Shown: positions 3,075 through 54,059, counted from the first letter of the stretch. The stretch is DNA of 64,000 nt from Massalongia carnosa (GCA_965645245.1 OZ287078.1:62001-126000), one strand, 5' to 3'. A program made the numbers and translations. Notes: a model not told the origin generated them from the sequence alone.

Positions 3075-4911
3075 TTATATGAGCGTCGTAGCGGAAAGCT
3101 TTTGTATGACGTCTCGATTGAATGTTGTCGCAAAGTCGTCTCGTCCAGTGCGATCCTTGTATTTGGATTCAAGACACAGTAACACGGCACTGGAGTAAGC
3201 CTCGCCCATGTTGTGCGCAATCTTTCGCTTGGCATACCAGCTGTAAAACTTACTGATCTCCAATGCACTCATTCTTCGAGGTTCACCGACACGTCTTCGG
3301 TCGCGTTGTGACTGATCGGTCATGGCTTTTGCCGTCTGCCAAACCGCAATCTCCAGAAGAATCACACCAAGCGAATATATATCGTGCGTCTTGCTGTGAG
3401 GAGGCCGGAAGGATCCTTGTAAATCCGCGTGAAGGTAAGGATCAACCTCGCTGGTATAAGCCGCAAGCGTAGATGAAGCCCCGTTAGGTCTGGAGTACTT
3501 AAAATTGACAAGGTAGGGCATATAACAGAGATTGTCCTGACCTATGGTTTCCTCCTCACGGTGATTAAAAAAAACCACTGGTTGGCTCCGTATACCCTTG
3601 TGGATCCAACCATCGGCATGGAAATTACCCAGACTCAGAGCTATCCTCTGGGCAATCTTGAAGCGAGTGGACAGGGATAACGATCTCCTGCTTTCGATGA
3701 TGGAATGTAAAGAGATTGGATCGCTCGGTTCGGCATCCTCGGGAATCTCAAACACAAAGGCATGCCTTCCCATCGCTGGTTGGTGGATGAGACCCTTGAA
3801 CGGCAATGTTCCAAGTTTGTTGAGGCCTAAAATATCAAGAATACTTACCAGCTGGTTGACCCGCACCTTAACTATTTCTCGGGTTGAAGCTTCCTCTTGA
3901 ATCGGTGCATCAAAGTCCGCAAAGACCGGCGGCCCCTCGGTGCCGCTAGTGAGCCAGCTGAACCGTGAAGGGCTGGTGGTTGTTAGGTGTCCATTCTGCT
4001 CGCCGGCCTTCAAAGTGTTGAAGTATGCTTTGTATTCAATCAAGACAGTCTCTGTGGTGGTATTTCCTTCTGCTATTTTCCGTTTCAACGTTGCCATGTG
4101 AACAGTAGATGTATCACCCGTTGACTCGATGTAGCCGTTTTCGATATTGAACCGCCTATTGCCCGAGCTAGCACCCATCGCGAGCATTGTCCTCTCAGCT
4201 CGAGCTGCGAAACCTAATATATTTGCATCCTTGTCGTCACGTAGAACTTCGTATGGTTTTTATTGCTGGCCCCGAAGACTTTGCAGACGTGACTGGTACG
4301 CTACTGCGATCTGGAGAGTACCTGACAACTGGGCATTCCACTCACGGAATTTCTGCACGATGGCCTCCAACTTCTTCTTGTCAAACAGTGACCATCTTGA
4401 AGCCACACGAAGCTCTTCAGCTTTCGTTTTCATCCGGGAAAGGGTGGATGGTTTGCCTGTCTCGCTTTAATCTGGTTTCTGTGGCTCGATTGACTTGCTC
4501 GCCGGTAAAACCTGCTCAATCCATGGCGAGTAGCTAGTCCGTGCGAGCCTCGCATAATCGGAAAAGTCATCTCGGAAGCGTTCACAGATGTGAATGGTGT
4601 CAAATAGTATCTCCTGCAAAGAGAGTTTTGGTAAGCGTCTCCGAAGCATCTACAAGTCATGGTCGTCGCACAGGGCACAGACCGACCTCATTGATTAGCT
4701 CATCGTCGACAAGGTTCCCTTCGGCCTTACTGAACCATCGTTCGAATGCGCTGAGAATGACAAGCTCGTGACGGATATCATCCACAACTCGTTTCCTTTC
4801 CAAGTCGCATTGTTTGGCTGATTGAACTGTATCGTAAATATATTTCCCTACCGTGTAGGCTTCGTGGCAAATCGCGATAACCCCGACAGTGATGCTGAAT
4901 GGATCGGCCAT
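3075..4911 (-). pseudogene. HeLo/HeLo-like domain + pseudokinase protein (MLKL-like architecture)
   Basis: Hydrophobic N-terminal helix MADPFSITVGVIAIC. Predicted intron 4614-4686 (GTCGGT...TTGCAG). HeLo C-terminal motif RWSLFDKKKLEAIVQKFREWNAQL. Kinase-fold motifs FHADGWIHKGIRS, PYLVNFKYSRP and DIYSLGVILLEIAVW, with both the HRD and DFG aspartates missing. Two in-frame TAA stops at 4467-4469 and 4260-4262. Confidence 0.8.
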
Positions 4912-4917
4912 TCCCAC

Positions 4918-5279
4918 CTCATTGGACTGGATCTATGCTTGTTCAATCGCAATGTGAGTATATGCGCCGAAAGTCAAGTTATAGGTATGAGGTAGTTGAT
5001 ACCGAATTGTTTACAGAGTACAGTCCGCCGTACGAGTATGTAATATACGTTCTCGTGTTATTAATCCATGCTAGCCGACGATCTGCACTACAACACTGTA
5101 TCGTTATCGAAGCTCTCAGCCTTCACGATCATTCTATAGGCAGTCGAATTTATGAAGAAATGGCACATCCTGAAAAATAATGTCGCTATGTCGCTCAAAG
5201 AATGATAGCCTTGTCGAAGCCGGCGAGGTTGGCCTGAGTTGAACAACTAGTTGGATGGACAGTAACGCATCCATCCACG
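4918..5279. promoter_or_regulatory. putative bidirectional promoter between the divergent gene pair
   Basis: ~360-bp spacer between two head-to-head start codons. No specific motif identified. Confidence 0.4.
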
Positions 5280-5943
5280 ATGGCTTCCTCAGATGCGTGG
5301 GAAGGTTCTTCAGATCCGTCAGCCTCGAGATCCTACTCCTCCGCTTGGTCATCCTCTCTGGGCTCCGCCTCCAACATCTTCATATACTCGAGATCAGACT
5401 CGGTCATGCCGGACGGAAAAATCAACTGGGATATGAAGTCCATTTTTGACATATTGTGGAGAACCGGGATACCTGGTCCTCACCTACTTCGGGCAACGAA
5501 AGAGTTCACGCTGGGCATGGGGAAAGGCTCCCAGGGATATGTTTGGGCTGCATGTGACTTATTCGCAAGTGCGAGGGATTCCATTTCGCATGACCCTGAT
5601 TGTCGGCTGCGAAGGTCGTTGGATGGCTGGACAGCCTGTGTGATCAAACGAGTACGTTCTGATGGGAAGCAAGACCTTCGGCAACAAGTTCGATCCACCT
5701 ACAGCGAAGTAATACGACTATGCCATAATGATTTACGCAATCACGAAAATATAGTGAAGTTGATTGGATGGGGGTTGTGTTTGGATTCTTTGGAAACCGT
5801 TACTACGGAAGACCCGAGATTACCGCTCCTTATTTTAGAGCGAGCGCATTGTGATCTAGGCATGTTCCTCGACGATTCGAATTTGGAAAAGACGTCGATC
5901 GTCGTCCTTCGGGAAATCTGTCTCGCCGTTGGAAGAGGCCTGG

Positions 5944-8900
5944 TGTCAACCTTTCACATGAATTCAGGAAGGATGAAAAAGGCTGTATTCTGTATGTGGG
6001 AAATGCCCACATCTAGCTACCTATATAGAAGGGAAAAGGGGTCATGGCAGCAACGATATTAACCCCGGCAAATTGAGGGGTAAAGGTGTGGAAGAAATGG
6101 CGTAGCTTAGCGGCATCTGCCGCGACAGGGGGTCGAGGATCGGCGATGAGAATCGACCACATTCAGGTTTGACACACCCCCCCAGGATGCGAAGCATCCT
6201 GACCAAAAGAAGAAAACATGAAGCAATTCCCATTCGAGAAAAAGGTGCAATTCTTGCAAAATCAAAATGAGATGCCAGTGAAAAGAAATTTCTGCCCGCC
6301 GAGAGGAATTCCGCCCGGTTCACTCCCGCCTGCCCCATTCCTAAATCAGACACTTGATATCAATAAGGCCTAGCATTTCCAGAAAGGAACGATGCTTTTG
6401 CGGAGGCAAGGGCTTGGTGAGACCATCTGCCGTCATCCGGTTGGTCTGTAGATAACCCACATTGAGATGACCAAATTGAACGCTCTGTCTCAACCACAAC
6501 TGAGCGATGTCTACATGCAGAAGTTTGGTGGTAACTTTGGGCTGTTCCGACGTCAGAATGCGGATGGTCTGCATGTTATCATTGTAGATTTTGACCGAAT
6601 GGTCGTAGTCGAATCCCAGCTTGCCAAAGAAATTAATCCACCAGATGCATGCCTTGCAGGCATGGAGAAGGGCAAGCAATTCTGCCTCTGTCGTCGAAGT
6701 TGAGACGGTCGCCTGCTTCCTGGCAGCCCAGTCGATCATGCCGCCATACAGCTTGAATGTGAAACCCTCGTAGCTGCGTCGCTCGGGACTATTTGCAAAG
6801 CTGGCATCGGCAGTGTTTTCGAAGACATGCTTTGCCGAGAGCTGATCATCATCCGGAGACTGCACGGTAAGCTCGCCACCTCCCGAGGGTGAGTATTTTA
6901 TCGCCAGATACTTAGTCGCGTGTAGATATTGCAGGCAGTGATTTGCCGCGTCTAGATGCTCCAGACCGGGACAGGTGAGATGCTCTGCCAATTTGGAGGC
7001 AGCTTTGGCAACGTCCGGCCGAGTGATATTCGCGGGATAGCAGATCGATCCTACCTTTTTACGATATTCCTGCCTCAGGGATTGGTCGACTGACCGAGGC
7101 GAGTCCGAGTCTGGGCTAGCTGCCGAGGCAGAGGTGAATGCGATGAAGTCTGACGGTAGCGGGGATGACGGAGATTTAGACGTGTCTATCTCGTATTCAA
7201 TTGCCAACTTGTCCATGTAGGAGTCTTGACAAAGATAAATGTCGCCAGCATTTCGAACAATCCGTACACCGAGAAAGAAGCTCAATTGGCCCATGTCGCG
7301 TAATTCAAATCGAGCATTCAACTTCTGAATCAGCAGATCTACGTCTGCAGCTCTACTTTCCGGAAAGATGATGACTATGTCATCCACATAGAAAAAGAGG
7401 ATGATGCCAGAGTAGTCGGTAAAAAGGCAGGGCTCGCCAGGGATCTGCTGCATGTCCAATGAGGTGAGTGCTTTGGAAAATTCTCGTAGCCATAGTAGAG
7501 GCGATTTTCGAAGCCCGTACAAAGCCCGGACCAGGAGCAAGCATTTCCCCTCGATGACGAAACCATCTGGCATGTACACGTGGATGACCCTATCGGCTTT
7601 GGCATTTAGGAAGGCATTGATCGCGTCAAACTGCCTTGTCCTGAGTCCGAAAGCAGACGTCAGGGCCATGAGGCACCTGAAGATCTTAATTGCCAGCGTA
7701 GAGGCGTATACATCTTCCGCCGAGACTTCTTCCAAATCCCCTCGGACTACCAGGCGTGCCTTGTATTTTACTAGAAAGCCATCCGGGTCGAACTTGTATG
7801 TAAAGACCCACATTAGTGGAAGCGGCTTCTGATTGGAAGTTTTGGGAATGACGACGAAGGTGTCCATTCTGAGAAGAGTCTGATATTCAAAGTCGGCTGC
7901 TTTGCGAAATCCTTCTGCATGGGGATGTCGAAGCATACCTCGCCACTGCTTCGGCGGCGGCGGCAGGCTGTCTCTATGCAATCTGGTCGACCTAGTGGTC
8001 ACTGCAAATGCCAAATAAACTTCCTTCATCCCGTCATCCAATCTCGAGTTTGTATTCCCTAGTGGTTCCGAAGCGATGCCGAGTGGTCTGATGCCGAGAG
8101 GTGCTGCAAGATTTGCGAATTTCTGCTTCGGTTTTCTGACTCGTTTTCCTTCGACGATATTGCTGACATCCAATTTGGCAGATCCGATATTCCTACTGGG
8201 ACCGGTGCCAAAAGATTCGGCAATGCCGAGAGGCGTCCGGCCGGTTTCTGGCAGATCAGTCGGTAGATCTATGCTACTCGGAAGACTGTCTTTTACCACC
8301 CGTTTGTCGCGAGATGTTGACGAAGATGTAGCTGCAGGTGCTGAGGTCGATGGAGGCGGAGTGCTCTCGGGAGTTGGAAGATGCTGCTGACTCGGTGAAT
8401 GTCTCGGCATGATAGGGACGTCTTTCGCAGTCAACGACGCGGGCACATCCAGTGCAGACGAATTTTCAACCGACGAAGAAGGATCAGCAAATGACCGATT
8501 GCGCACAGATGTCGCCAGCCATTGCTCCTCATTTTCTGCCAAATCAACAATGTAGGGAGCAGCATCGAAAACTTCCAGCTCTACAAACTCGGCCACCTTC
8601 TCTTTGGGAATCAGATCCTTTTTGACGTATGTGGAGAAGGTTTGATCCTCATCAAAGATAACATCTCTATATCCGCTGACCGACCAGGTCTCGGGATTCC
8701 AGACTCGATAAATGTTTGTAGAATCGTATCCGACCAGATAGCCAACAAATGCTCGAGGGGCTAGTTTCTCACTTTTTGGCGGGGCATCTTTACCTTTCAG
8801 AAGGGGATATGCCTTGCACCCAAAGACCTTGAGATGACCAATTTCGGAATTGTATGGCTTCTTCAGGGCTCGGTGCAGGGAGATGTGAGGCGATTTCCAA

Positions 8901-11772
8901 TCTAGTCCTTTTGTCGGCGTCCTATTTAGCAAGTGTCCAGCAGCGAGATAGCACTCGGGATACAGATCTTCTGGCAAATCGGCGCCGATGCGAATGCATC
9001 TAGCCTTCTGAGTCAAAAGGCTTCCTGCCCTCTCAGCCGACCCATTCTGCTCCTTAGTATGCTTTGCGGACCATTCAAACGCGATTCCCTGTTCCTTGAC
9101 GAAGTCTTGAATGACGTCTCCAACCGACGTTTCCTGATCCATTCGAAAGGTCTGAACGAAAAGACCGAATTCGGCTCCGAGTCGATCGCACCGATTTATG
9201 ACATGCTTGACAATCCGAAGTAGTGTCTCCTGCTTATGATCTTGCAGGGGGAAGACCCAATGAAACGAGGTGAAATCATCCTGAAAATGAGCGACGCAGG
9301 TGGTCCCATCGAAAGCAGTCCTTTTCAAAATAATGAGGTCAAAATGAAGACGCTGGAATGGTTTAGTGGCTTTAGTAGCCGAGACCCTTGATACTAGTGT
9401 ATGCATTTTTGACAATGCGCACGTCTCACATTTCACTGTCTTTGGAGCATCTTGACCACTGTTACCTCTTGAAATCTCAATCATCTTCTGATTCGACAAC
9501 TGGTTAATGACTTCCGGTTGGCAATGTCCTAGGCGGAGATGAAATTTCCATGGCGTGCCTTTTGGGATTGCATCTGCCGAGACTCGGGAACCGACGAAAT
9601 TTGCGAAAGCACCAGCGTGGCCAACGGGACGATACTCGGCAGTGTAGAGACCGAAATGCTCTTCCAATTCGAAGATTGAAATACCCTTCTTCTCGACCGT
9701 GTCCGTATGCATGTTCCACAGAAATCCATCCTTTTTCAGCTTGCTGACCGAAATCAAAGTCACCGATGAGTCGGGAACGTATGCTGTGTGTCGAAAATGC
9801 AGAGGCTGATTCTTCCCTTTTAGTGTCCCATTCACCAACATTGTCCCAAAACCTTCAATAAGGAGATCTCCGTCGGGAGTCGAGACCCATTCGTATGCCG
9901 GGATGATTTCGTCAATAAACCGGGATTTGTCCCAGGTCAGATGATTGGAGCATCCCGAGTCGTAGGAGACGCTGAGATGAAGCAGATTGTCGCGATCCGA
10001 GATAGTATTTCCAAAAGAGACTGGAGCATTCTCGACAACAGGGAGCTCGGCGGGAGCATTGCCATTGCCTCGGCCACGACCTCCATCTCCGCGACCCCCT
10101 CGACCTCCACCTCTTCCTCGATATCGAGGTTTCAAAGGTTCATCAGGCTCGGAGATGCCGTTGAGAATGTCGGATGTAGCGGCGCGTTTGACATACCAAT
10201 AAAGCTTGGAATTGGACCCGATTTTTTGTCGGATGTGGTCGCGTATCTCCTTATTGAATTTCCATCCCGAGATTCTAGACTCGACTGTCAAATAAGGGCA
10301 TCTTTTCCAGGAGTGAGTTTCGCCGCAAAGGCATTCGCTATTGCCGTACTTGCTATCTTCAGAAGTGGAATTTCCCTGATCGGAAGAAGACTGTCCTTGC
10401 AGAGAAGCGGAATTCGCCGAGAGCTGCTGACGACGACCAGTGCTGATTGCATTTTCTTCTATCTCGGTCCGATACTCATTGGCGGCCTCGAAGAATTTAA
10501 GGGGACGACCTGATACATTTCGTATCTTGATCCAGGTGTCGCAAAAGAATGGTGCCCATATCCGAGCGGCTTTCAGAAAGTGCTGAGTGTAGATATACTC
10601 ACTATAGATGGGTTCAACTTTCAAAGCAACGATTTCTTCCCTCAGCGTTTCCCATTGGCAGATCCAAGATTCGATCTTCCCTTTCACCGGGTGAGAATTT
10701 CTCAACTCGTCGTATTGGCGATCGATCTGCCTTTGAACTTCGTCCTGACTCTTTTTGAATTTATGGGCCAGGGACTGAAGAATTTCTCGAACCGAGGATG
10801 ATCTGACATTCCTGGCGACATAATCTTTAGCCGACTCTAGGATGACCGTATGAACCTTCTCAATTCCCATGGCTGCGGCCCTGGCATCTGCCTGAAGCCC
10901 TCGATGTGACCGTTCATCTGCATTGTACGACTCCTTCTGTGATTCCGAGAGATCGGCATACCGAGAACATGGTTCGGGAATCAGGACCGGCGGGCCATTT
11001 AAATCGCCGAGAACTGTCCCTTGAGAAGAACCTTGAGAAGCGACAATAGCAGGCGTAGGGATATTGGTAGAGTCAGTGCCAGGCGTATTAACCGGGACGA
11101 CTTTGACGTAATCACTGAATTTGGGAAATTTGGGAATGGTAGGTTCCGATTCTGATCCTTCCGGATCGACGTACTCCCATACCTGAGATCGTACTGCGAT
11201 ACCCTTGATTTCCGACAACCAGGAATTGTAGGTCCTAGGCGTCAGAGCCGAGACGATGAGTTTCCGAGACGATCCCGACGAGTAGTCTTCCATTTGGGAT
11301 AACCGACCAAAGATGGAGACAGATGGGAAAAACAGGGAAACGACCAAAAAGGCAAAGGAAAACAGAAGCACGAGGAATAAATCAACTCTGCGATGCTCCA
11401 TGAGAGATACGATAATTCCGGCGGCGATACTCAGCCTGCCTAGGATATTTCGGGGTCGATGAAGGCAGCGATAAATCAGCTTACCAATAACTAAAGTTAA
11501 GACGGAGGCAGCGAAAAATTCAGCTAACCCGGGCTCATAGCTGTCAACCTTTCACATGAATTCAGGAAGGATGAAAAAGGCTGTATTCTGTATGTGGGAA
11601 ATGCCCACATCTAGCTACCTATATAGAAGGGAAAAGGGGTCATGGCAGCAACGATATTAACCCCGGCAAATTGAGGGGTAAAGGTGTGGAAGAAATGGCG
11701 TAGCTTAGCGGCATCTGCCGCGACAGGGGGTCGAGGATCGGCGATGAGAATCGACCACATTCAGGTTTGACA
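5944..11772 (-). mobile_element. Ty1/Copia LTR retrotransposon 1, intact
   Basis: Identical 231-bp LTRs (5944-6174, 11542-11772, TG...CA) and TSD CCTGG. PBS GCTATGAGCCCGG; PPT GGGGGGGTG. Confidence 0.97.
6341..11401 (-). CDS. Copia gag-pol polyprotein (PR-IN-RT-RH order)
   Basis: 1686 aa with zinc knuckle CLCGETHSWKRC, PR YDSG, GAG-pre-IN HLRLGH, IN QNGSAER, RT FYVDD and RH ADASF/ADGLTK. Start may be the ATG at 11293. Confidence 0.95.
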   Translation of the reverse strand: MEHRRVDLFLVLLFSFAFLVVSLFFPSVSIFGRLSQMEDYSSGSSRKLIVSALTPRTYNSWLSEIKGIAVRSQVWEYVDPEGSESEPTIPKFPKFSDYVKVVPVNTPGTDSTNIPTPAIVASQGSSQGTVLGDLNGPPVLIPEPCSRYADLSESQKESYNADERSHRGLQADARAAAMGIEKVHTVILESAKDYVARNVRSSSVREILQSLAHKFKKSQDEVQRQIDRQYDELRNSHPVKGKIESWICQWETLREEIVALKVEPIYSEYIYTQHFLKAARIWAPFFCDTWIKIRNVSGRPLKFFEAANEYRTEIEENAISTGRRQQLSANSASLQGQSSSDQGNSTSEDSKYGNSECLCGETHSWKRCPYLTVESRISGWKFNKEIRDHIRQKIGSNSKLYWYVKRAATSDILNGISEPDEPLKPRYRGRGGGRGGRGDGGRGRGNGNAPAELPVVENAPVSFGNTISDRDNLLHLSVSYDSGCSNHLTWDKSRFIDEIIPAYEWVSTPDGDLLIEGFGTMLVNGTLKGKNQPLHFRHTAYVPDSSVTLISVSKLKKDGFLWNMHTDTVEKKGISIFELEEHFGLYTAEYRPVGHAGAFANFVGSRVSADAIPKGTPWKFHLRLGHCQPEVINQLSNQKMIEISRGNSGQDAPKTVKCETCALSKMHTLVSRVSATKATKPFQRLHFDLIILKRTAFDGTTCVAHFQDDFTSFHWVFPLQDHKQETLLRIVKHVINRCDRLGAEFGLFVQTFRMDQETSVGDVIQDFVKEQGIAFEWSAKHTKEQNGSAERAGSLLTQKARCIRIGADLPEDLYPECYLAAGHLLNRTPTKGLDWKSPHISLHRALKKPYNSEIGHLKVFGCKAYPLLKGKDAPPKSEKLAPRAFVGYLVGYDSTNIYRVWNPETWSVSGYRDVIFDEDQTFSTYVKKDLIPKEKVAEFVELEVFDAAPYIVDLAENEEQWLATSVRNRSFADPSSSVENSSALDVPASLTAKDVPIMPRHSPSQQHLPTPESTPPPSTSAPAATSSSTSRDKRVVKDSLPSSIDLPTDLPETGRTPLGIAESFGTGPSRNIGSAKLDVSNIVEGKRVRKPKQKFANLAAPLGIRPLGIASEPLGNTNSRLDDGMKEVYLAFAVTTRSTRLHRDSLPPPPKQWRGMLRHPHAEGFRKAADFEYQTLLRMDTFVVIPKTSNQKPLPLMWVFTYKFDPDGFLVKYKARLVVRGDLEEVSAEDVYASTLAIKIFRCLMALTSAFGLRTRQFDAINAFLNAKADRVIHVYMPDGFVIEGKCLLLVRALYGLRKSPLLWLREFSKALTSLDMQQIPGEPCLFTDYSGIILFFYVDDIVIIFPESRAADVDLLIQKLNARFELRDMGQLSFFLGVRIVRNAGDIYLCQDSYMDKLAIEYEIDTSKSPSSPLPSDFIAFTSASAASPDSDSPRSVDQSLRQEYRKKVGSICYPANITRPDVAKAASKLAEHLTCPGLEHLDAANHCLQYLHATKYLAIKYSPSGGGELTVQSPDDDQLSAKHVFENTADASFANSPERRSYEGFTFKLYGGMIDWAARKQATVSTSTTEAELLALLHACKACIWWINFFGKLGFDYDHSVKIYNDNMQTIRILTSEQPKVTTKLLHVDIAQLWLRQSVQFGHLNVGYLQTNRMTADGLTKPLPPQKHRSFLEMLGLIDIKCLI

Positions 11773-12201
11773 CCTGGGAGCTGTTCATGCTGCAGGATTT
11801 GCACACGGTGACTTAAAACCAGCTATTGTTTTGATGTTTGCTGCAAAGAAAGAGAAAATGTGGAGCATGCAGAGATGGATTCCCAAGCTGTGTGACTTTG
11901 GCTCTTCAAATGTGAAGCAATACCTGGGAAGTCCTGGCTGGCAGCCACCAGAGTACTAGGTTCGGGTGAAAAGTATTGACGGATTAAGCGAGAAAATCAA
12001 AATCGATCTTTCAATCACTGTTGCGTCTAGGCAAGATTATACGAGTGTTGAAAGATGTTGATTAAATGAGCAAGTCTGCTCGCCTATATAAGCTTAAAAT
12101 ACGCTAGTCTCAATTGAGACTTCCCATAAAGGGAGCTACGACTATAGTCATAATACCATAATACCATAGCTATAACAGATGCCGATAAAAAAGCAAAAAG
12201 G

Positions 12202-24300: not shown

Positions 24301-24549
24301 GTGGATCTGAAAGGTCAGAACGAGAAGATCCTCTTCCACGGGGATGGGGATGGAAGATGGAGCCAGGGTGATGGCTGTTCCAGTCAATGTACTGGTGGAC
24401 AGGCACAGTAACACGGATGAAAGATAAGGTGAAAGATGTGCAGGATAGTAAGGTCGGATGTGAATGTCTGCTAAGGCAGACCGAGCTTGGTTGAGTTCCT
24501 CAGCAAACAACTGGTGCCGGAGGACTGGCGATAGCTGAAGACGTATCAA
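21356..24549 (-). CDS. Gypsy gag + C2H2 finger + protease portion
   Basis: Gag region, CTRCAASFSSRNKLFRHLR and protease CLDSGT...LLIGND. First ATG is at 23970, but the frame is open further upstream. Confidence 0.88.
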
Positions 24550-25334
24550 TTGGTGTCTAGAAGCTATCGTACTGGAATCAAGAAATCAAAACAGTGCTAC
24601 CATTGTTGCGTCTAGGCAAGATTATACGAGTGTTGAAAGATGTTGATTAAATGAGCAAGTCTGCTCGCCTATATAAGCTTAAAATACGCTAGTCTCAATT
24701 GAGACTTCCCATAAAGGGAGCTACGACTATAGTCATAATACCATAATACCATAGCTATAACAATCACCTCCACAATCAAAAATACTAAACCTTCAATTCA
24801 ACACGATAATTTCTACAATTGATGTCGAAGTCAGACGTATGTATGAAGTAGTTGATCTGAAATTTTGAAGCATGTTTTACACTCAATATTTGGTGGAAAA
24901 ACCATGATTTTTAATCACAGCCCGACAACGATCTCGCATCGTGTTGATCCATTTCAGATGCTTATTTCCACCACCATCCCGTTCCATTCGTTCGTTCCTG
25001 CTATGAATATGTCTTTTGCATTCGTGACTAAACGAGGATATCGTTTGATCTTCTGCTTGCAGCCCCTCCACATGTACTCGATGGGATTGAGATCAGGACT
25101 CGAAGGGGGCCAGGTCATGACCTCTATCTGATGTTGTCGTAGCCACAAACGAGCCTCTTTGGAATCGTGAATGCTCGCATTGTCTTGCATGAAGATGGGA
25201 CGGTGGCCTTGTGCTTTGAGAGCTTCGTACCAAGGAAAAAGGCATGGTTCCAAGATCTGATTGATATAATCAGTGGTGGTTATCGAGTCCTTCAATAGGT
25301 CTTTGTTTTTCCCCCTCTTCATCTTCTTCAAAGT

Positions 25335-28300
25335 TGTTTAAAATAGGAGGGATGGATGGAGAATGATGGACCCAATGCACAGAAAATAGGTGGCAGAGTG
25401 CCAGAAGTCTCTGGATAGTACAGAACTTCTATGAATGAAATAATTCAGATTATTGCGACTGATCTCTAAGCTATGCGTAGGAGTGATGTTATATACATGT
25501 TAATCATAGAACATTCGAGATTCTCCTCGAACGTCTATAGACCTGAATTTCTAAGCATCGAAGATACCAGAAATTCTCAGATGTAACTATTCCCATATCA
25601 GGAAAATACGCGAGGGCATTCGCATATTACGTCAGAATGATCTAGCTGGCTTGGCATTCGCAACACTCCCACTGCAAAGTCAGCTGAGAAATTTTAACAG
25701 AAAAAATACCTATATCCCTAACTCCTAAACCGTTTATCAATCTATGTCAATTCACCTCTTCCGTATGCAATTTGAATTTGGGTTGGACCTGTTTTGTGCA
25801 ATCTGATTTGGTCCATTAGCTCCCACTGAGCCTGTGTTCCCCTTTTCTTATTCCACCTCTTGCACACCAAGCTTGGCTCGTAGTTCTTTGAACATGGTTG
25901 CTCCCAAGGGCTTGGTGAATATATCAGCTATCATCTCGTGTGTGGATACGTGACCAGTTGAAGCATAGCCATCGTTAATGACTTCGCGAAGGTAATGGAG
26001 TTGGATGTCTATGTGTTTTGATCGGCTATGATGCTCGGGGTTTCTGATCAAGTCGAGGGTTCCCTGATTATCACCGTTCAGCTTGATCGGGAAGTTCATA
26101 TGCTTGCCAAATCCCAATTCATTCATCCACCTTGTCACCCATACGATATCCTTGCCTGCTTGGCACATGGATGAATATTCCGCCTCCATTGTTGACGTAA
26201 CCACTGATCGTTGCTTCTTGCTTGCCCAAATCACTGCCCCATTGCCCAATAACATTGTATGCCCGTAGGTTGACTTGCGGTCATTGACGTCATCGCCGTA
26301 TGCGGCATCCGCAAAGCTAATGAGATCACCGTTACGGTTATGGTCGTATACGAGGGCTAGGTCGGCTGTCCCTTTGAGATATTTGAGGACTCGGTCAAGG
26401 GCTGTTCGATGCCTCGTGGCTGGATCATGCGTGTACTGACTGAGTTTTCCAACTGCAAAAGCGAGGTCTGGCCTCGTGCTTACCATAGCGTACATGACAC
26501 TGCCAATACGCTTCTGATATTCTAATTGATTGGTTCTGGGCTCGTCAGCCGTTGCAGGTGTAAGGCTTTCTTTCCCGTCTAGTGGTGTTAGTACTGGATC
26601 GGCGTTATCCATCTGGTAATCGCGAAGGAAGTTCTTGATGTAGTTGGATTGATCGAGGAAAACCCGTTTTCCTTCACGTCGAATGCGAATACCCAACACG
26701 TACTGTGCTGGCCCTAGGTCTTTCATTTTGTACTCAAGATTTAATAGCTCTTTGACATCTTTGATCGCTGTCTTGCTCTTTGAGAAAATTAGTAAATCAT
26801 CTACGTACAACGCGATGATTACGTGCGAGGTTTGGTTGACAAAGACACAATTATCGCCTGTGAGGGTCTTATAGCCAATAGAACGCAGGAATTTAGATAT
26901 TCTTTTGTTCCACTCTCGTCCAGATTGCTTCAATCCGTAAAGGCCCTTCCGTAGTCGTAATACGCAGTCTTCATAGCCTGGTGGTGGCGTGAGGCCTTCG
27001 GGCATCTCCATGTAAATAATTTCTTGTAGATCCGCTTTAAGATAGGCATTCGGAACATCCATTTGCTCGATTTCAAACCCGAAGTATGCTGCGAGCGACA
27101 AAAGCATCCGCAAAGATTCCTGACGGAGTGTGGGTGAAAAGGTCTCCTCGTAATCTAGGCCGAATATTTGTGTATATCCTCGTGCAACTAGGCGGGCCTT
27201 GTAGCGGTCTATGAAATTGTTGACCGTATATTTTATCTTGAATACCCATTTGGACGTCACGATATTTCTGCCATGCGGCCGCTTACAATACTCCCATGTG
27301 CCATTAGCAATGAGGGTACAAAGCTCCTCGTCTATTGCTATTAGACATTTACGCCAGTCAATGCATTTGATGGCTTCTTTATAGGAGCGGGGTTCGGATA
27401 GCTTGGGGGTTTGATAAACTTGCTTGTGACCACTCTGGTCTAGGTTTGCGTCCATGTCTGCTTTCCGAGCTATATGCCCGTGTGCTTTATCGAAGCCGTA
27501 CTTATCAAATGGCTTTCGCTCCCGCGTTGATCGACGAGTAGGCTTATTAGTAGAGGTTTGTATGGTGGAAGAAGAAGAATTGATGGTTGATGAAGATACG
27601 GAAGTGGAAGGGTTCGTAGGAGTGGAAGAGTTTCGATTATGATTTTGCGACCGGAATGTTAAACCATCTGGTCGCTGATAAGCATTAGGGGATGAATCAG
27701 TGATAACTTGCTGATTTTCAGGATTTGATCCTGAATCCCGTCCTGAATTTTCGTCTCTAACCTGATTTTGAACACCCTCAGGCGCTCCCACTTGATCAGA
27801 ATCAGGTTTATTTGTGTCATCCTCGTTATCAGTACTATTGTCGTCAGCATCATTAGCGACGCCGGACTGTACGAATAACTCGCGATCCTCATTTGGTTTT
27901 GCTCCTCCTAGAATAATCCCGCCGGGTGTATTTTCTAGGAACTTAATTGAAGTATGCCATTCTACCTTGCTCGTTTTTGGATTATAAATGCGATGTTGGT
28001 TTGAAGAGTGATATCCGACGAAAATTCCTTGCCAGGATACTTTATCCAGCTTGGATCGATTTTCCTTCGGGATATGAACGTGAACCAAGCAGCCAAAGGT
28101 GCGTAGATGGCTGATGTCCGGTTTTTGCTCCGTCCATTTTTCTTCGGGTGACTGGTTAACTTTGGCGGTAGGGAGGAGGTTTCTGAGATAGTTAGCAGTC
28201 ATTGCTGCTTCTCCCCAGAAGGAATGAGGCAATTTCGCCCATACGAGCATGGACCTAATCATTTGAACGATTGTTCGGTTATATCGTTCCGCAACTCCAT

Positions 28301-30827
28301 TCTGTTCTGGAGTATACGGTGTAGTGGGTTCAGCGCGAATGCCATCGGGTTGAATAAGTTCCATGAATTTCTTGTACTCCTTAGCATTGTCGCATCGGAA
28401 TTTGATTACCTGCTGATTCTTTTCTCCTTCAACGACATTCATCCATTCTTTGATAGCTCCATAAATGGTTCGTCGGTTTTTAAGGAGAATTAGCCAGGAC
28501 TTCCGTGTAAAGTCATCAATCAATGAAATAAAGTACGAATGGCCTCCGAGGCTAGCCGTATGATAGGGGCCCCAGATATCCGTGTGAATCCTGGCCAATG
28601 GCCGGACTGTTTTCGAAAACGGCTCGTGACTGACCACTCGGGTTAACTTGGTAAAGTTGCAGATAGAACATGAAAGTTGTGTAACAGTTGGTGAAAAGGA
28701 AGTTATTCCAGACGCATAGCGGTATAAATCCTGGAGTCGTTTTGGGCTGGGGTGACCCATTCGGGCGTGCCACAGCCTGTATTCACGCTCTTCTGGCCTT
28801 TCTTGACCTACAGGTGATACCGATTTTTCTCGCGTGCAATCTCTTGCTCTTATTGTAGGCTTGTTCGACGATTTAGGATCTTCGGGGTTGGCTTCCTCGA
28901 TATTTTCGCTGATTTCCGCGAATGCCTGTAAGGCAACCTGAGAGGTCCGCATGAAATACGTACGTCCTCTAAGAAAACCACTGGCCACTGAGGTACCCTT
29001 CCGCAGGATCTCCACACCTTTTCCATGAAACAAGACATTTAACCCCTTTTTGTTTAATGCCGAAATAGACAGTAGGTTTGCATCCAGTTGGGGTACGTAT
29101 AAAACGTCGGTCATGCGAATGGCAACACCATCGATATCCACAGAAATATCACCCTTACCCTTGCTCCAAAGCCTCTTGCCATTAGCAATTCGAATTGGGG
29201 TGCGGTGGTATTCGAATTTCGTGAAGATATTTCGCATATAGGTCATATGACGTGAAGCACCAGAGTCTAGCATCCAGCCACTAGTTTTATCCTCTGCACC
29301 TTCACGGACTTCAAAAATTTCTTCTAATTTTTCAACTTTCTCATCAATAACCTCCTCTTTTATATCCACGGCCATCCACCCCTCATCCTCACTGGCACCA
29401 TCGTCAAAGTCCTCTTCATTAGCCGGCCGGGCAGTGCCTTTGCTTCGGCCACTGAAGTTGGAAGAACTGGTATTGCTCGTGGAGGTAGGCCTAGTGGTAC
29501 TCCGTGATTTCAATTTGGGTACAGGTTTTGATGTTTCGGATTTGGACTTCGGTTTCCTCCGTTGCTCAGGATGGGTGCGTTCCCATTCCTGGCCTTCGTC
29601 GGTGTCATCAAGCCAGCTCCAGCAATAGATTCGGATATGTCCAAGTTTCCCGCAATGGTCGCACTTCTTTGGTGGCCCTTTACCCTTTTTTGCATTCGCT
29701 CGATGGGCATCCTCGACAGAGTCATCCTTTTCGAATTTTAGTCGCTGCTCCGTCGCTTTCAAGGCCTCCTTAGTTGCTTCCAAGGTAAGCTCGGGTTCCC
29801 GTTCCAATAAAAGCTTTGTTGTATCAAATGCAGGGTCCTCCACGGCACTCATCAGGGCTATGGCCATCAACGCATCGTGAGGCTCAAACTCCGATTTTAT
29901 GTCCGCAATCTGGACTCGTAAGGTCTCAAGGGCCCCTGCTATATCATCGATAGAGTCGCTGGATCCAGCCTTGTAGGTATAGAATCGCTTCAATAAATAG
30001 TTGATTCTTCCTCTGGCGTGGACTCCATGGACCTTCTTTAGAGCGTCCCAGGCGGCTTTGGATGTTGTTTTGTTTCGAAGGTGAGTCAATTGGCTTTTCT
30101 TACAGTTGGCCCGTATCCATTTCAATGCGTTGGTATCATCGTGGTCCCATTCGTCAAAGTCTTTTGGTCGGGTTACTGTATCTGGTTGAGGGGTTTTTCC
30201 TTCTACTAACTTGAGGACTCTCATAGATTTAAGCTGAATCCACATCTCTTCCGCCCAGGTTAAATAATTATCGGCACCTAGCTTGGGCTCTACCCTTATA
30301 TCCCCTTTCCTTACCGCTTTTGTATACTGCCCATCGGGGCCAGAAGATGAAGAGGAAGGAGGGGAAGGGCTGGTCATACTTGCTGGTGTATTAGGGTCTG
30401 TGGAGTCGCGTTGGTCCGCCATCTCGTTATGTATAACCTCGAAACTAACACAAGAAAATCACTCGGCAGCACTATAGGCTAACCGGGCTCATAACCTGTT
30501 TAAAATAGGAGGGATGGATGGAGAATGATGGACCCAATGCACAGAAAATAGGTGGCAGAGTGCCAGAAGTCTCTGGATAGTACAGAACTTCTATGAATGA
30601 AATAATTCAGATTATTGCGACTGATCTCTAAGCTATGCGTAGGAGTGATGTTATATACATGTTAATCATAGAACATTCGAGATTCTCCTCGAACGTCTAT
30701 AGACCTGAATTTCTAAGCATCGAAGATACCAGAAATTCTCAGATGTAACTATTCCCATATCAGGAAAATACGCGAGGGCATTCGCATATTACGTCAGAAT
30801 GATCTAGCTGGCTTGGCATTCGCAACA
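25335..30827 (-). mobile_element. Ty1/Copia LTR retrotransposon 3, intact
   Basis: Identical 331-bp LTRs (25335-25665, 30497-30827) and TSD AAAGT. PBS GGTTATGAGCCCGG. Confidence 0.97.
25848..30422 (-). CDS. Copia gag-pol polyprotein
   Basis: 1524 aa with CDHCGKLGHIRIYC, LDSGA, WHARMGH, QNGVAER, LYVDD and ADIFTK. Confidence 0.96.
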   Translation of the reverse strand: MADQRDSTDPNTPASMTSPSPPSSSSSGPDGQYTKAVRKGDIRVEPKLGADNYLTWAEEMWIQLKSMRVLKLVEGKTPQPDTVTRPKDFDEWDHDDTNALKWIRANCKKSQLTHLRNKTTSKAAWDALKKVHGVHARGRINYLLKRFYTYKAGSSDSIDDIAGALETLRVQIADIKSEFEPHDALMAIALMSAVEDPAFDTTKLLLEREPELTLEATKEALKATEQRLKFEKDDSVEDAHRANAKKGKGPPKKCDHCGKLGHIRIYCWSWLDDTDEGQEWERTHPEQRRKPKSKSETSKPVPKLKSRSTTRPTSTSNTSSSNFSGRSKGTARPANEEDFDDGASEDEGWMAVDIKEEVIDEKVEKLEEIFEVREGAEDKTSGWMLDSGASRHMTYMRNIFTKFEYHRTPIRIANGKRLWSKGKGDISVDIDGVAIRMTDVLYVPQLDANLLSISALNKKGLNVLFHGKGVEILRKGTSVASGFLRGRTYFMRTSQVALQAFAEISENIEEANPEDPKSSNKPTIRARDCTREKSVSPVGQERPEEREYRLWHARMGHPSPKRLQDLYRYASGITSFSPTVTQLSCSICNFTKLTRVVSHEPFSKTVRPLARIHTDIWGPYHTASLGGHSYFISLIDDFTRKSWLILLKNRRTIYGAIKEWMNVVEGEKNQQVIKFRCDNAKEYKKFMELIQPDGIRAEPTTPYTPEQNGVAERYNRTIVQMIRSMLVWAKLPHSFWGEAAMTANYLRNLLPTAKVNQSPEEKWTEQKPDISHLRTFGCLVHVHIPKENRSKLDKVSWQGIFVGYHSSNQHRIYNPKTSKVEWHTSIKFLENTPGGIILGGAKPNEDRELFVQSGVANDADDNSTDNEDDTNKPDSDQVGAPEGVQNQVRDENSGRDSGSNPENQQVITDSSPNAYQRPDGLTFRSQNHNRNSSTPTNPSTSVSSSTINSSSSTIQTSTNKPTRRSTRERKPFDKYGFDKAHGHIARKADMDANLDQSGHKQVYQTPKLSEPRSYKEAIKCIDWRKCLIAIDEELCTLIANGTWEYCKRPHGRNIVTSKWVFKIKYTVNNFIDRYKARLVARGYTQIFGLDYEETFSPTLRQESLRMLLSLAAYFGFEIEQMDVPNAYLKADLQEIIYMEMPEGLTPPPGYEDCVLRLRKGLYGLKQSGREWNKRISKFLRSIGYKTLTGDNCVFVNQTSHVIIALYVDDLLIFSKSKTAIKDVKELLNLEYKMKDLGPAQYVLGIRIRREGKRVFLDQSNYIKNFLRDYQMDNADPVLTPLDGKESLTPATADEPRTNQLEYQKRIGSVMYAMVSTRPDLAFAVGKLSQYTHDPATRHRTALDRVLKYLKGTADLALVYDHNRNGDLISFADAAYGDDVNDRKSTYGHTMLLGNGAVIWASKKQRSVVTSTMEAEYSSMCQAGKDIVWVTRWMNELGFGKHMNFPIKLNGDNQGTLDLIRNPEHHSRSKHIDIQLHYLREVINDGYASTGHVSTHEMIADIFTKPLGATMFKELRAKLGVQEVE

Positions 30828-33133
30828 AAAGTCTTCTTAAACTCCACCAATTCGCTGGCCTGCTGTCCACATATGCCTCCCCAAACCATGACTGACTGTC
30901 GACCCGAGTGCTTAAAGCTATTCAGACAATCAGGACAGTACTTTTCCCCTGACCTTCGGGTAACGAACTGACGAGCTCTCTGTCCCGTTTCAAACGTGCT
31001 CTCATCGGTAAAAATAATACGCAACCAGTCTTCTTCTTGCCAAGACAGATGCTCTCGTGCCCATTTGAGACGTTTGCGACGATTGATCCAGGAAACCAGG
31101 GGCTTGGGACAGGCCACACAGCGACGAAAGCCTGCTTTTCGAAGCGCCTTTCGAATAGTCGACATTGAAGCTTGAATTCCAAGATCTTTGGCTATCTTCA
31201 TGTAGGATGCTTGTCTACCATCTTTAGAACTCGCCACTGCACGCACAAGATGTCGCACGTCTCTAGGGTTGAGTTTGACAGGTCGTCCCGAGCGAGGATG
31301 TGCATCGTGCCGAGGCTCTCCAGATTTGCTCCATCTTCGCACAGTTGGTGTGGGTACACCAGTTGCTCTAAATATTTGAGCAGCTGGCATATGACTGTCA
31401 TGATATAGATCTAGTACTCGCTGACGTGTGGGAGTTTCCCATTCGGAATTGGGCTGATGGGAGGGGTGATTCATGATGATGATGTGGAGAAGAGGAGGGG
31501 AAAAATGCAAAATAAGCGAAAATCCGTCAATACTTTTCGCGCTAACCTCGTACTACGAACAAGATAAGGATAACGTGCTAGAATCTCTACAGCCGTGTGA
31601 TGTGTTCGCGTTTGGTGTTCTTGCTGCTGCTCTGTATGTTGGACGTTCATCTTCTCCCCTTGATGATTTCGGCAATCTAGATCGGGATGAGATCCGTCGA
31701 AGATGTCAGTGTCAATGCTTTTTACTCCAGGCAGAATCGGCAGTGCGCCAAATATGTGCCGCTATAATCACAGAATACCTCAGGCCTTGTAATAGAAATG
31801 ATCTTGATCATGATCATCGTGACTTAAATATGATTACAGACGAGCGTAATCGATATTTCGCTGTGTTGCGAATCTCGATGAACTACCATCAATCGTTTAG
31901 AGAAGCTCAGCCATGGCGCTATATGAACTCTATCCGCTTTCCTGTTATTGGTCCTAACGCGGAAGATCTCGATGGGAAACCTGATGTCGGAAGCTAGATT
32001 ACCCTTCCGTCTACAAGAGTCTTGGCGATCACCGAGGAAGTCTAGCATACTTGAACGGATTCTCGCTATTTCCCCACTCTATTAGCAGCGACATTGCCGA
32101 ATATGAAATATGTGCAGAAAAGAATCAATTCGTGGCAATAGCATCTCTGGAAATGGTTTCTACTTTTATTAGCAATCAAAGAGCGATCGACAAATAACAA
32201 TTGAGTCTATTCTAGCAATCATTGAGGATCATGCACACGTAGGATGGGATGACAGCGAAATCAGCACCTTCGCACATTCTGATGAGCCTCATATTTGTTA
32301 TGTGTATACTCTATTAAATGCTATCCATGAAGCAGAATCCTATCCGACGATCTTTGACCCACTCTCTCTACGCTACGCAAGAGTCCGACTTCGAAGTCGA
32401 TTTAGTATAGGCTGCTGGCAGAAGGCTAATGTCAGTGAGAATTTCTTATCGGAATATCTTCATTCATCATTTCCGTATGACATTGCTCCATTAGCTTGGC
32501 TCTGTCGCGGCGACGTCGGCATGCATGAATTATTGAGGCTCGGAGAGAACACCGAGCTTCTTTGGAGCTGTACCAATGACATTCGGTTGTCCGACAATTT
32601 TAAATCAGAGGCATTTCACTTATTCTTCGAAAGAGGGTGTAACATAGCACAAATCATAGGCCCGGACGAGAGATAAGTTATCAAAATTATCTGTACTCGA
32701 TTATCTTTTGATGGCATCAATTGATAGCTTATGCTATCTGCATTACGTTAAGTGGTTATTTTTGCTTAAAAATCTATGCTGCTTAAATATGTCGTCGATT
32801 CCAGGGAGTAGGGGGACTGGCCTTTTTAAATCCTTCCGTTTTTTCGGAATCTAACATTGATTTCAGAATATCTTTTCGGCGCTATCTCGAATCTCTCAAT
32901 GATGACAAAGAGGCTATCGGGATATGCGAGCATTTTAAGCGCATTAGTGGGTGCGAGAACATTGCCCCATGGACACAATTCTTCTTAACGGGTCAGCCTT
33001 CGGACCTCGTTGATGATCCGGAAGTCGAGACGCAGGCTTTTTCTACCACGGCTTTACACGATGCTGTACGTGTGTCAAACTATGAAGTTGTGGAATATCT
33101 TGTGCGTACAAATTTTGTGGTTGAGGCGCAAGA

Positions 33134-33531
33134 GTAATTCGGCTAGGGCGAAAGGTAATGCCGGGACCGAGTGGAGGCAGGCCGTGGATAGCCAACGAAG
33201 GCCGAAGGCCGAAGGAGGATGATGTCCAAATAGTTGGACAAGGAGGGGAGAGAAAGGGCATAAATAGGTGGCCTTTTGGCACTCTTCTCCTCATCATCAC
33301 CATTGATTCTGAGTTCAGCACCAAAAGGTCTTTTGCCCACCCACCCACTCCCTGAGTCAGCCGCATAGGTAGATGGAGTTTTTCCCCTCACTGCTGCCAA
33401 AACAAAGCCATTATAGGAGGGGCCCTCAGCAAAACTGAGCGCCAGCAGGGCAGCAGCGAGGGGAGAGTTGCCCAAACATAGATAGAAATTATATATATGT
33501 TCAGCTGACACGATGGAGCCCGCGAATTACA
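33134..33531. mobile_element. solo-LTR-like insertion in an ankyrin repeat
   Basis: Ends are GTAATTCG...CGAATTACA. Removal restores GCG CAA GA|T ACA TCT GGT GAA ACT (AQDTSGETALDL). The left terminal base and TSD appear to be lost. Confidence 0.7.
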
Positions 33532-34773
33532 TACATCTGGTGAAACTGCTCTTGATTTGAATTTCAACCTGAGGAATCCGCGTAACCGGATTCAAAATAA
33601 CCGAATCTTGGCTCTCTTACGCCAGCGACGAACAAAACCTACTGCGAATTTAAATAGAGAAAGCCATATTCGACACGCGGAATTGCCAATTGGATGGGAG
33701 GTCTCTATAGTTGAAAATGGGAGCAAAACCTATCAGGAAACAAGTATAGGATCTAACATCGATGCTCTCACCTTTGAGCAACCCTGCGCTGGTTTCCTGG
33801 ACGATAAGAGACTTGTAATAGGGGCTCTTAACGGTGAGAAAAGGTATGGGCACAGGCTTGATGAATGGAAGGGTGCGATCGTTGAAGCAGGTATGAGAAT
33901 AATCTTTTACTAGGAAAGGGTTGCTTGAGCAGGTTAGATCAAGGATGGGTACGAATCTCGCTATTCCTAACGGTGAGCCTCTTACATATAACGAGTTTAC
34001 TCTCACTTGAAGCTGGAAACTGGAATTCGCGCTCATATAACGAGGTGCGAAATCTAACAAGTAAAAGTAGTCATGGTTCCTTACCGATCAAGCCGGTTGG
34101 GAAGGAACCTCTACCACTCAGTGTCCTGAACCATCGGGCTTAGAACCCCACCCTAAATGACGAGAACTTTTGGATTTCAAGAGAAATGTGAAAGAATCAG
34201 CACATGAGCATTCAATAGCCATCCAATCCCACACGGTAACTTGTTAATGTCCGTATATTGATAGCGTCTTGTCATCAAAGTCTATGCATGTGCTGGTGAA
34301 TAGGTCCTTGACTGTGGCATTAAACAGTTCATTCTTCTGCAAGAGGAATGATTAGTAGCACATGAGATGAAGACTGTCGAGGACGTAGTCGCGAACCGAA
34401 GTGGGAACAGTTGATCCTCTTCGAGCGAGCTTGATCATCATGCTTTCCATATATCTGAAAGTGTTGTAATTATAAAATATAACTTTGTAATAAAACGAAG
34501 CGAGCAATAGATAAAACACCTTTATCTTCAACAACTTACTATTGCGAGGTTTTCACATGTAAAAGCGGTGGTTTTCTTTCGTCTGGTGTGATGTCTATCT
34601 TAGATCTTTATCTACTTCTTCTACTCGTCTTTGTGGTCTTCCAGATTCCATCGGCTGTAACCAGGCTACTTTGTTCTTGACACAACTTGACATTTATAGC
34701 TTCACTCACACACCCTCCATCCATACTCTGTCTGAGGTACACTGTCTATTGCAGAGTAACATTTCACGGGATC

Positions 34774-54050: not shown

Positions 54051-54059
54051 TAGCCCACG

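Follow-up and report, generated by a model that had tools for sequence, protein, structure and literature searches.

Does a filamentous ascomycete carry, as a pair of neighbouring genes, both the kinase and the pseudokinase executioner of a necroptosis-like switch? Necroptosis is defined by the kinase RIPK3 switching on MLKL, which joins a HeLo-type four-helix bundle (4HB) to a pseudokinase; to our knowledge, only the HeLo part and its activation by the amyloid route have been studied in fungi so far. The question is raised by a locus of Massalongia carnosa, within a stretch of 64,000 nucleotides (GCA_965645245.1 OZ287078.1:62001-126000; hereafter the window) that is eukaryotic, rich in transposons, of GC content 0.40-0.55, and whose proteins have their best named relatives among lichen-forming and other filamentous ascomycetes. 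Two divergent genes are concerned, a HeLo-pseudokinase gene (gene A; 3075..4911, minus strand) and a kinase gene with an ankyrin-like unit and a WW-like motif (gene B; from 5280, plus strand). A reading of the window from its letters alone (the sequence-only reading) had described them as a candidate death module; its observations are confirmed overall, and its interpretation is partly supported, namely for the synteny and for the HeLo and pseudokinase parts. We conclude with high confidence that, in its anatomy, decay, linkage, and joint diversification, the locus represents a module of two genes that is conserved in filamentous ascomycetes, here in a copy that was inactivated recently. To the reading of this module as a sensor kinase that acts on an executioner, taken as a whole, we assign a probability of about 0.45.

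The start codons, ATG at 4911 (minus strand) and ATG at 5280 (plus strand), are separated by 368 bp (4912..5279), in good agreement with the approximately 360 bp of the sequence-only reading, and this spacer is presumed to be a shared promoter region. Gene A comprises 587 codons and was modeled from open reading frames (ORFs), Pfam matches, and tblastn alignments to the relatives P0003 and P0001. Exon 1 (4687..4911, 225 nt) encodes the N-terminal helix, which starts with MADPFSI, and the first helices of the HeLo-like bundle, with 76% identity to residues 1-75 of P0003. It is followed by a 73-nt GT...AG intron (4614..4686), read directly from the sequence and seen as a gap between tblastn segments, by exon 2 (3078..4613), and by the terminal stop TAA (3075..3077). 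The brace and pseudokinase domain (DUF7580; 3078..4259) was delimited by Pfam, motif coordinates, and the kinase fold of an orthologue model, and contains the motifs VLIEYK (4029-4046), an HKG loop equivalent to HRD (3579-3608), NFK in place of DFG (3486-3512), and DIYSLGVILLEIA (3345-3383). Pfam scores are above cut-off for HeLo (PF14479) in piece 4260-4466 (25.0 bits, cut-off 23.2) and for DUF7580 (PF24476) in piece 3075-4259 (34.8 bits, cut-off 27). Pkinase, at 16.1 bits in the latter piece, is under its cut-off of 31.7, and PF17111, at 19.5 bits in exon 1, is also below cut-off. Together with the HKG and NFK motifs, these matches bear out the claim of a HeLo-like domain fused to a kinase fold that lacks the catalytic aspartates.

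The same architecture recurs throughout the gene A family. DUF7580 was detected in all 20 aligned relatives and HeLo in 15 of them (best E 2.5e-12), and the profile of a more distant HeLo-pseudokinase clade matches, with its N-terminal part, the HET-S chains 2wvo, 2wvq, and 2wvn at E 2.8e-9 to 5.3e-8; the N-terminal domain is thus HeLo-like, as had been proposed. Not one of 37 relatives has an HxD...N catalytic loop. All 37 read W-x-H-K-[S/G/N/A/T] at the kinase H-R-D position, and the K-G/S of the family falls on R-D in HMMER alignments to IRAK4, a plant kinase, and PERK. MLKL is degenerate likewise at its catalytic-loop and DFG positions (HGK and GFE). The window gene deviates from its family at 4 of 73 columns of at least 90% conservation, one of which is an artefact at column 1 and another the change of NFE to NFK at the DFG-equivalent position. 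The nearest solved chains to the family profile are IRAK4, KSR1/2, a plant LRR kinase, MLKL, LIMK1, and BRAF, and those nearest to the profile of the more distant clade are HET-S (N-terminal part), IRAK4, MLKL, and RIPK2. Of these chains, IRAK4, KSR, MLKL, and RIPK2 belong to the tyrosine kinase-like (TKL) type.

Structure prediction for the intact gene A orthologue of Lambiella insularis (pLDDT, the predicted local distance difference test, 67.6; pTM, the predicted template modeling score, 0.62) yielded a kinase fold preceded by five long helices at the N terminus and by two or three brace helices. In this model, residues 228-592 superimpose on BRAF (9bp8) with Z 20.2 and a root mean square deviation (rmsd) of 3.2 over 257 aligned residues, and on MerTK and other kinases with Z of about 20. 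Full-length mouse MLKL (4btf) is ranked first by Foldseek (E 2.3e-6) and is the only match that extends across both parts of the model (595 columns), with a poor superposition (TM score 0.31/0.41). The N-terminal 215 residues of a paired relative, L020, were modeled alone (pLDDT 72.4). Among 48,161 chains, the HET-S HeLo domain 2wvo_A ranks first (Z 9.9, rmsd 4.2, 146 aligned), a Z value that is below the safe level for helical bundles and that comes from the distant L020 rather than from the window protein. Further matches are the coiled-coil domains of Rx and Sw-5b, the CC-R domain of NRG1.1, and the MLKL four-helix bundle (Z 6.9 and 5.9), and Foldseek returned nothing at E ≤ 0.001 for this model (2wvo at rank 7, E 0.24). 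As such Z values are unsafe for helical bundles and Foldseek gave no match at that threshold, the HeLo assignment of gene A rests mainly on the profiles. We conclude that gene A has the domain plan of MLKL: a predicted HeLo membrane-attack domain, a helical brace, and a pseudokinase of the TKL type without the catalytic Asp.

Gene B becomes visible only after removal of transposable elements, as the sequence-only reading had noticed. Taking out 5944-11777 (a copia element with one copy of its CCTGG target duplication) and 11959-31555 (a Tc1-like element containing a gypsy element and two copias, with one flank copy), in all 25,431 bp and within 0.4 kb of the approximately 25.8 kb given earlier, unites its pieces in one open frame. 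All five parts are on the plus strand. Part 1 (5280..5943), which opens with the ATG at 5280, covers the N-terminal region and the kinase N-lobe, and part 2 (11778..11958) covers the catalytic loop, DFG, and PPEY, both recognized from the frame and from relatives. Part 3 (31551..32672), recognized from relatives, covers the kinase C-lobe and a middle helical domain. Part 4 (32865..33143) is an ankyrin-like unit with 62% identity to residues 669-761 of P0039, the Lambiella orthologue, and part 5 (33539..33913), found by tblastn, bears the WW-like motif, with likeness to relatives stopping at 33823. In the restored frame we read the Gly loop GMGKGSQG (5514-5537), the VIK motif as CVIKRV (5637-5654), HGDLKPAI (11804-11827), CDFGSS (11891-11908), PPEY (11936-11956), DVFAFGV of the form DxFxFG (31599-31619), the ankyrin-like TTALHDAV (33045-33068), and the WW-like LPIGWEV...ALTFEQP (33683-33784); the Gly loop, VIK, HGD, and DFG reported from the sequence are therefore all present. 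P0039 (1207 aa) is matched in tblastn by window pieces 32173-32673, 32865-33143, and 33539-33823. The N-terminal piece of gene B is 96% identical to P0040, 71% to P0038, and 64% to P0039.

An exhaustive search with P0038 retrieved 1823 representatives of the gene B family at E ≤ 0.001, 105 of them at E ≤ 1e-30 and mostly 700-1400 aa long. The HGD loop, which is of the non-RD type, is present in 140 of the 152 members inspected, and in a PDB profile search the kinase part is nearest to BRAF/RAF1, ZAK, TAK1, and LRRK2, of the TKL group. Pfam finds Pkinase in 45 of 45 members scanned; 11 of them also give weak ankyrin matches, and 5 have a C-terminal Na_Ca_ex domain. Pkinase (PF00069, cut-off 31.7 bits) scores 56.6 bits in P0040, 55.0 in P0038, and 49.5 in P0039, and the separate gene B pieces of the window give no Pkinase match individually. 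The relatives keep the full catalytic set, which is incomplete in the window copy, where Ile replaces the catalytic-loop Asn (HGDLKPAI versus HGDLKPAN in P0040).

The ankyrin and WW parts of the earlier description hold to a lesser degree. An ankyrin-like unit is present, and the family profile matches the ankyrin repeats of DARPins (designed ankyrin repeat proteins) over profile positions 725-796 (about 70 positions), but the clade of the window has one or two degenerate units that Pfam scores below cut-off (Ank_2 in P0039, 21.8 bits, cut-off 27.3). Likewise, an alignment of 29 long members shows good conservation of the WW-like motif LPxGW...Y/W.E...TF..P, but a WW domain finds no support from profiles: no Pfam family matches 33509-33913 at E ≤ 1, and P0039 has no WW match at E ≤ 0.1. 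The LPxGW motif is present in 48 of the 75 members of at least 900 aa, and 26 of the 75 contain at least four hydrophobic segments. P0039 (residues ~940-1207), P0043, P0047, P0051, P0056, and P0074 end in a multi-pass membrane domain like that of Na/Ca exchangers (PF01699), an unusual fusion partner for a kinase; for the P0039 tail, all 30 matches are to ascomycete Na_Ca_ex clusters (score 0.91). Relatives thus bear a membrane tail, whereas the window shows no trace of one. We conclude that an intact gene B would encode a putative TKL-type kinase of the non-RD (HGD) kind with its catalytic equipment, and that a helical domain, an ankyrin unit, and a WW-like motif would come after the kinase. 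In most other clades, the partner kinase instead bears a long array of ankyrin repeats.

The association of the two genes is not peculiar to Massalongia. The Lambiella insularis orthologues, MMC13_000157 and MMC13_000156, have adjacent locus tags on the same 1.89-Mb contig, and for 8 of the 37 gene A relatives the longest contig is of exactly the same size as that of a gene B relative (28,637 bp in Glonium stellatum, for example). We scanned metagenomes with the gene A alignment, kept the best 80 of 267 relatives, and grouped these into 63 clusters (at least 90% nucleotide identity), of which 33 were evaluable, with at least 2.5 kb of upstream sequence each. A divergent kinase of the gene B (HGD) family lies directly upstream at 22 of the 33 loci, with an estimated spacer of -330 to 1734 bp, and the same arrangement occurs at 6 more loci with shorter flanks. 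The HGD-x-K-x-x-N loop is present in 26 of 28 neighbouring kinases. When the downstream flank was searched in the same way as a control, a kinase was found at 2 of 30 loci.

This first count used tblastn queries of the HGD family only, and the 11 loci without an HGD partner were therefore rechecked. Nine of them (all but L001 and L004) have upstream ORFs of at least 160 aa, 25 in total, of which 13 were scanned; the other 12 overlap the long L069 ORF or one another. At four of the 11 loci, there proved to be a divergent kinase from a different subfamily whose loops read HRD or HKD (L069:3622-8592, L080:7661-9046, L050:1339-2736, and L071:51-1457). Two of these four kinases have ankyrin repeats, and one is a kinase-ankyrin ORF of 1657 aa with at least seven ankyrin repeat matches. 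The HeLo-pseudokinase clades with such partners are more distant and read WLHKGLRSxN at the catalytic-loop position. The pairing of kinase and HeLo-pseudokinase therefore survives a change of partner kinase subfamily, and the total of 26 of 33 evaluable loci with a divergent upstream kinase, against 2 of 30 downstream, accords, as does the Lambiella pair, with a prediction of conserved divergent synteny that was set beforehand. Partner architecture was examined with Pfam on 31 of 99 ORFs (long ones only, with L047 left out) at 16 loci. Strong multicopy ankyrin repeats follow the kinase directly at 14 of these (Ank_2 E 4e-8 to 4e-42), and the two loci without them, L006 and L010, belong to the window's own clade. 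Maximum-likelihood trees of 27 linked pairs (the 26 loci and Lambiella) share 14 of 24 splits between gene A and gene B, deep ones included; none of 2000 label shuffles reached this number, the maximum being 3. We read this as an old, stable linkage without partner swapping.

In the window itself, both genes have decayed. Gene A is interrupted by two in-frame TAA codons, at codon 124 (4467..4469, minus strand) and codon 193 (4260..4262, minus strand), which were recognized by comparing its frame with relatives. At both sites the 93%-identical P0001 and other relatives have Gln, and the remaining frame is intact. Each nonsense change turned CAA into TAA by a C-to-T exchange in a CpA context; such an exchange is the expected signature of repeat-induced point mutation, which two sites cannot establish. 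Compared with the 96%-identical P0040, gene B contains one stop and no fewer than three frame changes at ~31965-32180. By our own reading of the sequence, it also appears to have a damaged splice donor (ATAAGT at 32673, versus the GT donor implied by the Lambiella protein) and a TGA directly after the sole fitting acceptor (~33540). The last ~350 residues of P0039 have no detectable counterpart within the window; tblastn with residues 821-1207 returned only the WW-like part, even at E ≤ 10.

This decay is recent and unfixed. Contigs from four public sequencing runs (X1, X3, X4, and X5) were aligned to window positions 3000-6000, where contigs show presence, not absence, and both stop codons proved polymorphic. 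At 4262, the plus-strand change A>G, which turns TAA into CAA, accounts for a depth of 494 of 1272 in X1, 1882 of 1882 in X3, 8.35 of 8.35 in X4, and 26.5 of 26.5 in X5. The corresponding change at 4469 accounts for 490 of 1245 in X1, all of the depth in X3, 0 of 15.9 in X4, and all in X5; a 593-nt contig of X4 is the same as the window over 4314-4906 and keeps the stop at 4469. Contigs in all four runs also show an empty copia site, running from 5943 directly into the sequence at window position 11778. In X1 and X3, which come from the same organism, about one third of the depth belongs to a second sequence type with ~93-95% identity to the window; in the lichen metagenome run X5 this is the sole type, represented by a 12,358-nt contig that shows 155 differences over 3007-5943. 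This second type encodes Gln at both stop sites, lacks the copia insertion, and may be an allele, another strain, or a paralogue. Intact-looking versions of both gene A lesion sites thus occur in data from the same organism.

How might an intact pair work? We propose that a cue would be sensed by the kinase through its repeat or membrane part, that the kinase would then engage the neighbouring pseudokinase domain by phosphorylation or binding, and that this engagement would free the HeLo domain to permeabilise the membrane. The outcome would be a necroptosis-like switch without an amyloid motif. A RHIM-like (RIP homotypic interaction motif) core tetrad, [IV]Q[IVLC]G, occurs in 0 of 37 gene A relatives and, at unrelated places, in 3 of 190 gene B relatives, and neither this nor any other amyloid motif is conserved among the relatives of the two genes. 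The steps of this proposal differ in likelihood. Judging from the linkage, the two proteins probably act on each other. Given the HeLo family, cell death as the output is about an even proposition, and direct phosphorylation as the trigger, which would follow the analogy with MLKL, is a tentative and rather doubtful suggestion.

Several observations weigh against a sensor kinase acting on an executioner. The window copy is a dead pseudogene pair and cannot act, because both genes are pseudogenes; the earlier suggestion of a working module thus fails for the window itself. None of the five public sequencing runs that contain this stretch is on record as RNA. No upstream kinase was found at 7 of the 33 loci, including L001 and L004, which among the metagenome loci have the highest identity to P0003 (~40%), and so the pseudokinase can exist without a linked partner; moreover, the loci used for synteny all lie on metagenome contigs whose taxonomy is unknown. 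The sequence of the pseudokinase places it no nearer to MLKL than to IRAK4: MLKL chains reach E 8.6e-4 with the gene A family profile and 5.6e-5 with that of the distant clade, and in each search IRAK4 has the better score. With the gene B profile, the 60 best PDB matches include no RIPK, and the fold match to HET-S has the low Z value given above, from the distant L020. The Mantel correlation between the two genes (Pearson r = 0.69, reached by 0 of 5000 permutations) is carried by close pairs (Spearman 0.14; r 0.26 at distance >0.5). Tree agreement, in turn, indicates the age of the linkage rather than interaction or co-adaptation, because linked, vertically inherited genes share their history anyway; the proposed coevolution of the pair therefore stands as shared splits and old linkage, but not as proof of co-adaptation.

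A rival reading is that of a signaling unit with no death switch. The pseudokinase would then work with the kinase as its membrane-targeted scaffold or its allosteric partner, in the way KSR does with RAF, while the function of the HeLo-like bundle would be limited to membrane association or oligomerisation, and the output would be a stress or ion-homeostasis response tied to the Na/Ca-exchanger-like tail. The best PDB matches include KSR1/2 for the pseudokinase profile and are headed by BRAF/RAF1 for the kinase profile, and gene B relatives do have a cation-exchanger-like membrane domain. However, profiles place the N-terminal domain in the HeLo family, whose studied members, in the excerpted text of two reviews, are membrane-attacking death effectors (PMC12881547, PMC10197012), and the partners with ankyrin arrays are closer to the repeat sensors of fungal immune receptors than to scaffolds of MAPK (mitogen-activated protein kinase) pathways. 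We consider such a unit improbable.

The sign of the interaction could also be reversed. If the kinase silences the HeLo-pseudokinase, then its loss, inhibition, or mismatch would lead to death, and the pair would be an allorecognition (het-like) or guard locus at which null alleles segregate. Tight linkage and joint diversification suit a matched pair, and the locus is polymorphic, with the stop at 4469 found in X1 and X4 and absent from X3 and X5, the stop at 4262 found only in the window type, and the copia site either filled or empty. This polymorphism may simply be decay in a transposon-rich region, however, and there is no sign of inhibition over activation in these data. In addition, both genes are broken in the haplotype, where loss of the guard alone is predicted to be lethal, although earlier loss of the effector would permit it; we give this explanation a small chance. 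Smaller still is the chance we give to a bidirectional promoter that places the two genes under common regulation (in a stress regulon, for example) while the products have no effect on one another. The spacers between the divergent genes are generally short (-330 to 1734 bp estimated, and 368 bp in the window), as such a promoter would have it, but the linkage persists between clades of <30% identity and even where the kinase subfamily differs (HGD or HRD/HKD), and one partner is a catalytically dead copy of the fold of the other, the usual signature of a functional kinase-pseudokinase pair.

The elements that hide gene B themselves appear to be of recent date. Within gene B there is a copia long terminal repeat (LTR) retrotransposon (5944..11772, minus strand; LTR pair and Pfam) with 100% identical LTRs and the target duplication CCTGG. 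A Tc1/mariner-like element follows (11959..31550, minus strand; repeats and Pfam), with 24-nt terminal inverted repeats alike at 21 of 24 positions and TACTA at both flanks. The latter contains, each recognized by its LTR pair, a gypsy element (12019-24762), in which a copia is nested (15459-21350), and a further copia (25335-30827). The four LTR pairs are 99-100% identical, with target duplications CCTGG, ATCAC, and AAAGT, and the Pfam domains in the matching ORFs are RVT_2, RVT_1 with chromo, and HTH_Tnp_Tc3_2 with DDE_3. Including one at 36918-41995, the window has five LTR retrotransposons, several of them nested, with LTRs 97-100% identical. This identity suggests very recent bursts of transposition, with no visible repeat-induced point mutation in the five elements. 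Elsewhere in the window, a MULE-type (Mutator-like element) transposase gene with an AFT/FAR1 DNA-binding domain is present in two copies, at 1-2470 (minus strand, cut by the window edge) and at 46325-49387 (plus strand). A reverse-transcriptase ORF (RVT_1) at 52131-54965 is followed by ORFs without a Pfam match at E ≤ 1e-5 and may belong to a DIRS- or LINE-type element. A 9-nt tandem repeat at 56559-56810, of at least 17 units, encodes an acidic Asp/Glu run inside the ORF 56301-56804.

The closest parallel to the pair among known systems is MLKL with RIPK3. In both, by predicted domain content, the executioner combines an N-terminal four-helix-bundle or HeLo-type domain, a brace, and a C-terminal TKL-type pseudokinase, and the partner is a TKL-type kinase with catalytic equipment. 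RIPK4 and ANKK1 are RIP-type kinases with C-terminal ankyrin repeats. The fungal genes are adjacent and divergent, unlike those of animals, and have no RHIM-like motif, and the fungal partner differs in being a kinase of the non-RD HGD type that bears ankyrin, WW-like, or membrane parts. The fungal executioner may share common descent with animal MLKL or may be a similar domain fusion. According to the excerpted text of the two reviews, MLKL is freed by RIPK3 phosphorylation of its pseudokinase domain, and fungal effector genes often adjoin those of their sensors, which bear ANK, TPR, or WD40 repeats (PMC12881547, PMC10197012). The same text describes HET-S/NWD2, HELLP/PNT1, and HELLF/FNT1, in which, as here, a HeLo-family effector gene lies beside a presumed sensor gene and ANK-type repeats form the sensor part (PMC10197012, PMC12881547). 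In contrast to those pairs, the sensor here would be a kinase rather than a NOD/NLR (nucleotide-binding oligomerization domain/NOD-like receptor) protein, and the effector ends in a pseudokinase instead of an amyloid prion-forming motif. Plants provide a further comparison, although the fungal family differs from the plant one in being Pfam DUF7580. Pm13 is said to be a plant MLKL with a role in immunity. AtMLKL1-3 likewise place HeLo, brace, and pseudokinase outside animals and in immunity, and the excerpted part of that study makes no mention of a linked upstream kinase gene (bioRxiv 10.1101/681015).

The architecture of gene A has been noticed before. A figure legend in a 2025 review (Cell Death Differ, PMC12881547) states that some fungal HELL domains belong to proteins with a kinase or pseudokinase domain, reminiscent of MLKL; these HELL/HeLo-kinase proteins have the same architecture as gene A, and the excerpted text names no partner, gene neighbourhood, or family for them. 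In the open full-text literature we found no description of a linked partner kinase, a search that left subscription papers and supplements outside its scope, so that a prior description is possible; the name DUF7580 was not found in the open full texts searched. It appears, then, that the architecture of gene A was already known and that the conserved kinase-ankyrin neighbour and the family-wide linkage are new.

For this window the meaning is modest: it holds a transposon-riddled pseudogene pair, of which intact-looking versions occur in sequencing data of the same organism and an intact one in Lambiella. In its strongest form, the proposal would be a hard-wired, amyloid-free, necroptosis-like axis of filamentous ascomycetes, in which an ANK-bearing or membrane-anchored TKL kinase acts as immune or danger sensor and activates the adjacent MLKL-like protein directly, by phosphorylation. 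We regard this form as unlikely. If true, the sensor/executioner gene pairs of fungi would gain a third class in addition to the NLR/HeLo-amyloid and the protease/gasdermin pairs. The logic of kinase to MLKL would then be much older than animals or have arisen repeatedly, and the null alleles segregating at the locus would be presence/absence variation typical of immune genes. A wider exploration of fungal HeLo/4HB proteins has been called for in the excerpted text of both reviews (PMC12881547, PMC10197012). Kinase-ankyrin proteins may be a new class of fungal sensors, Pfam DUF7580 gains a context and a likely role, and the pair provides a concrete two-gene system for asking whether kinase-driven, MLKL-like activation exists outside animals.

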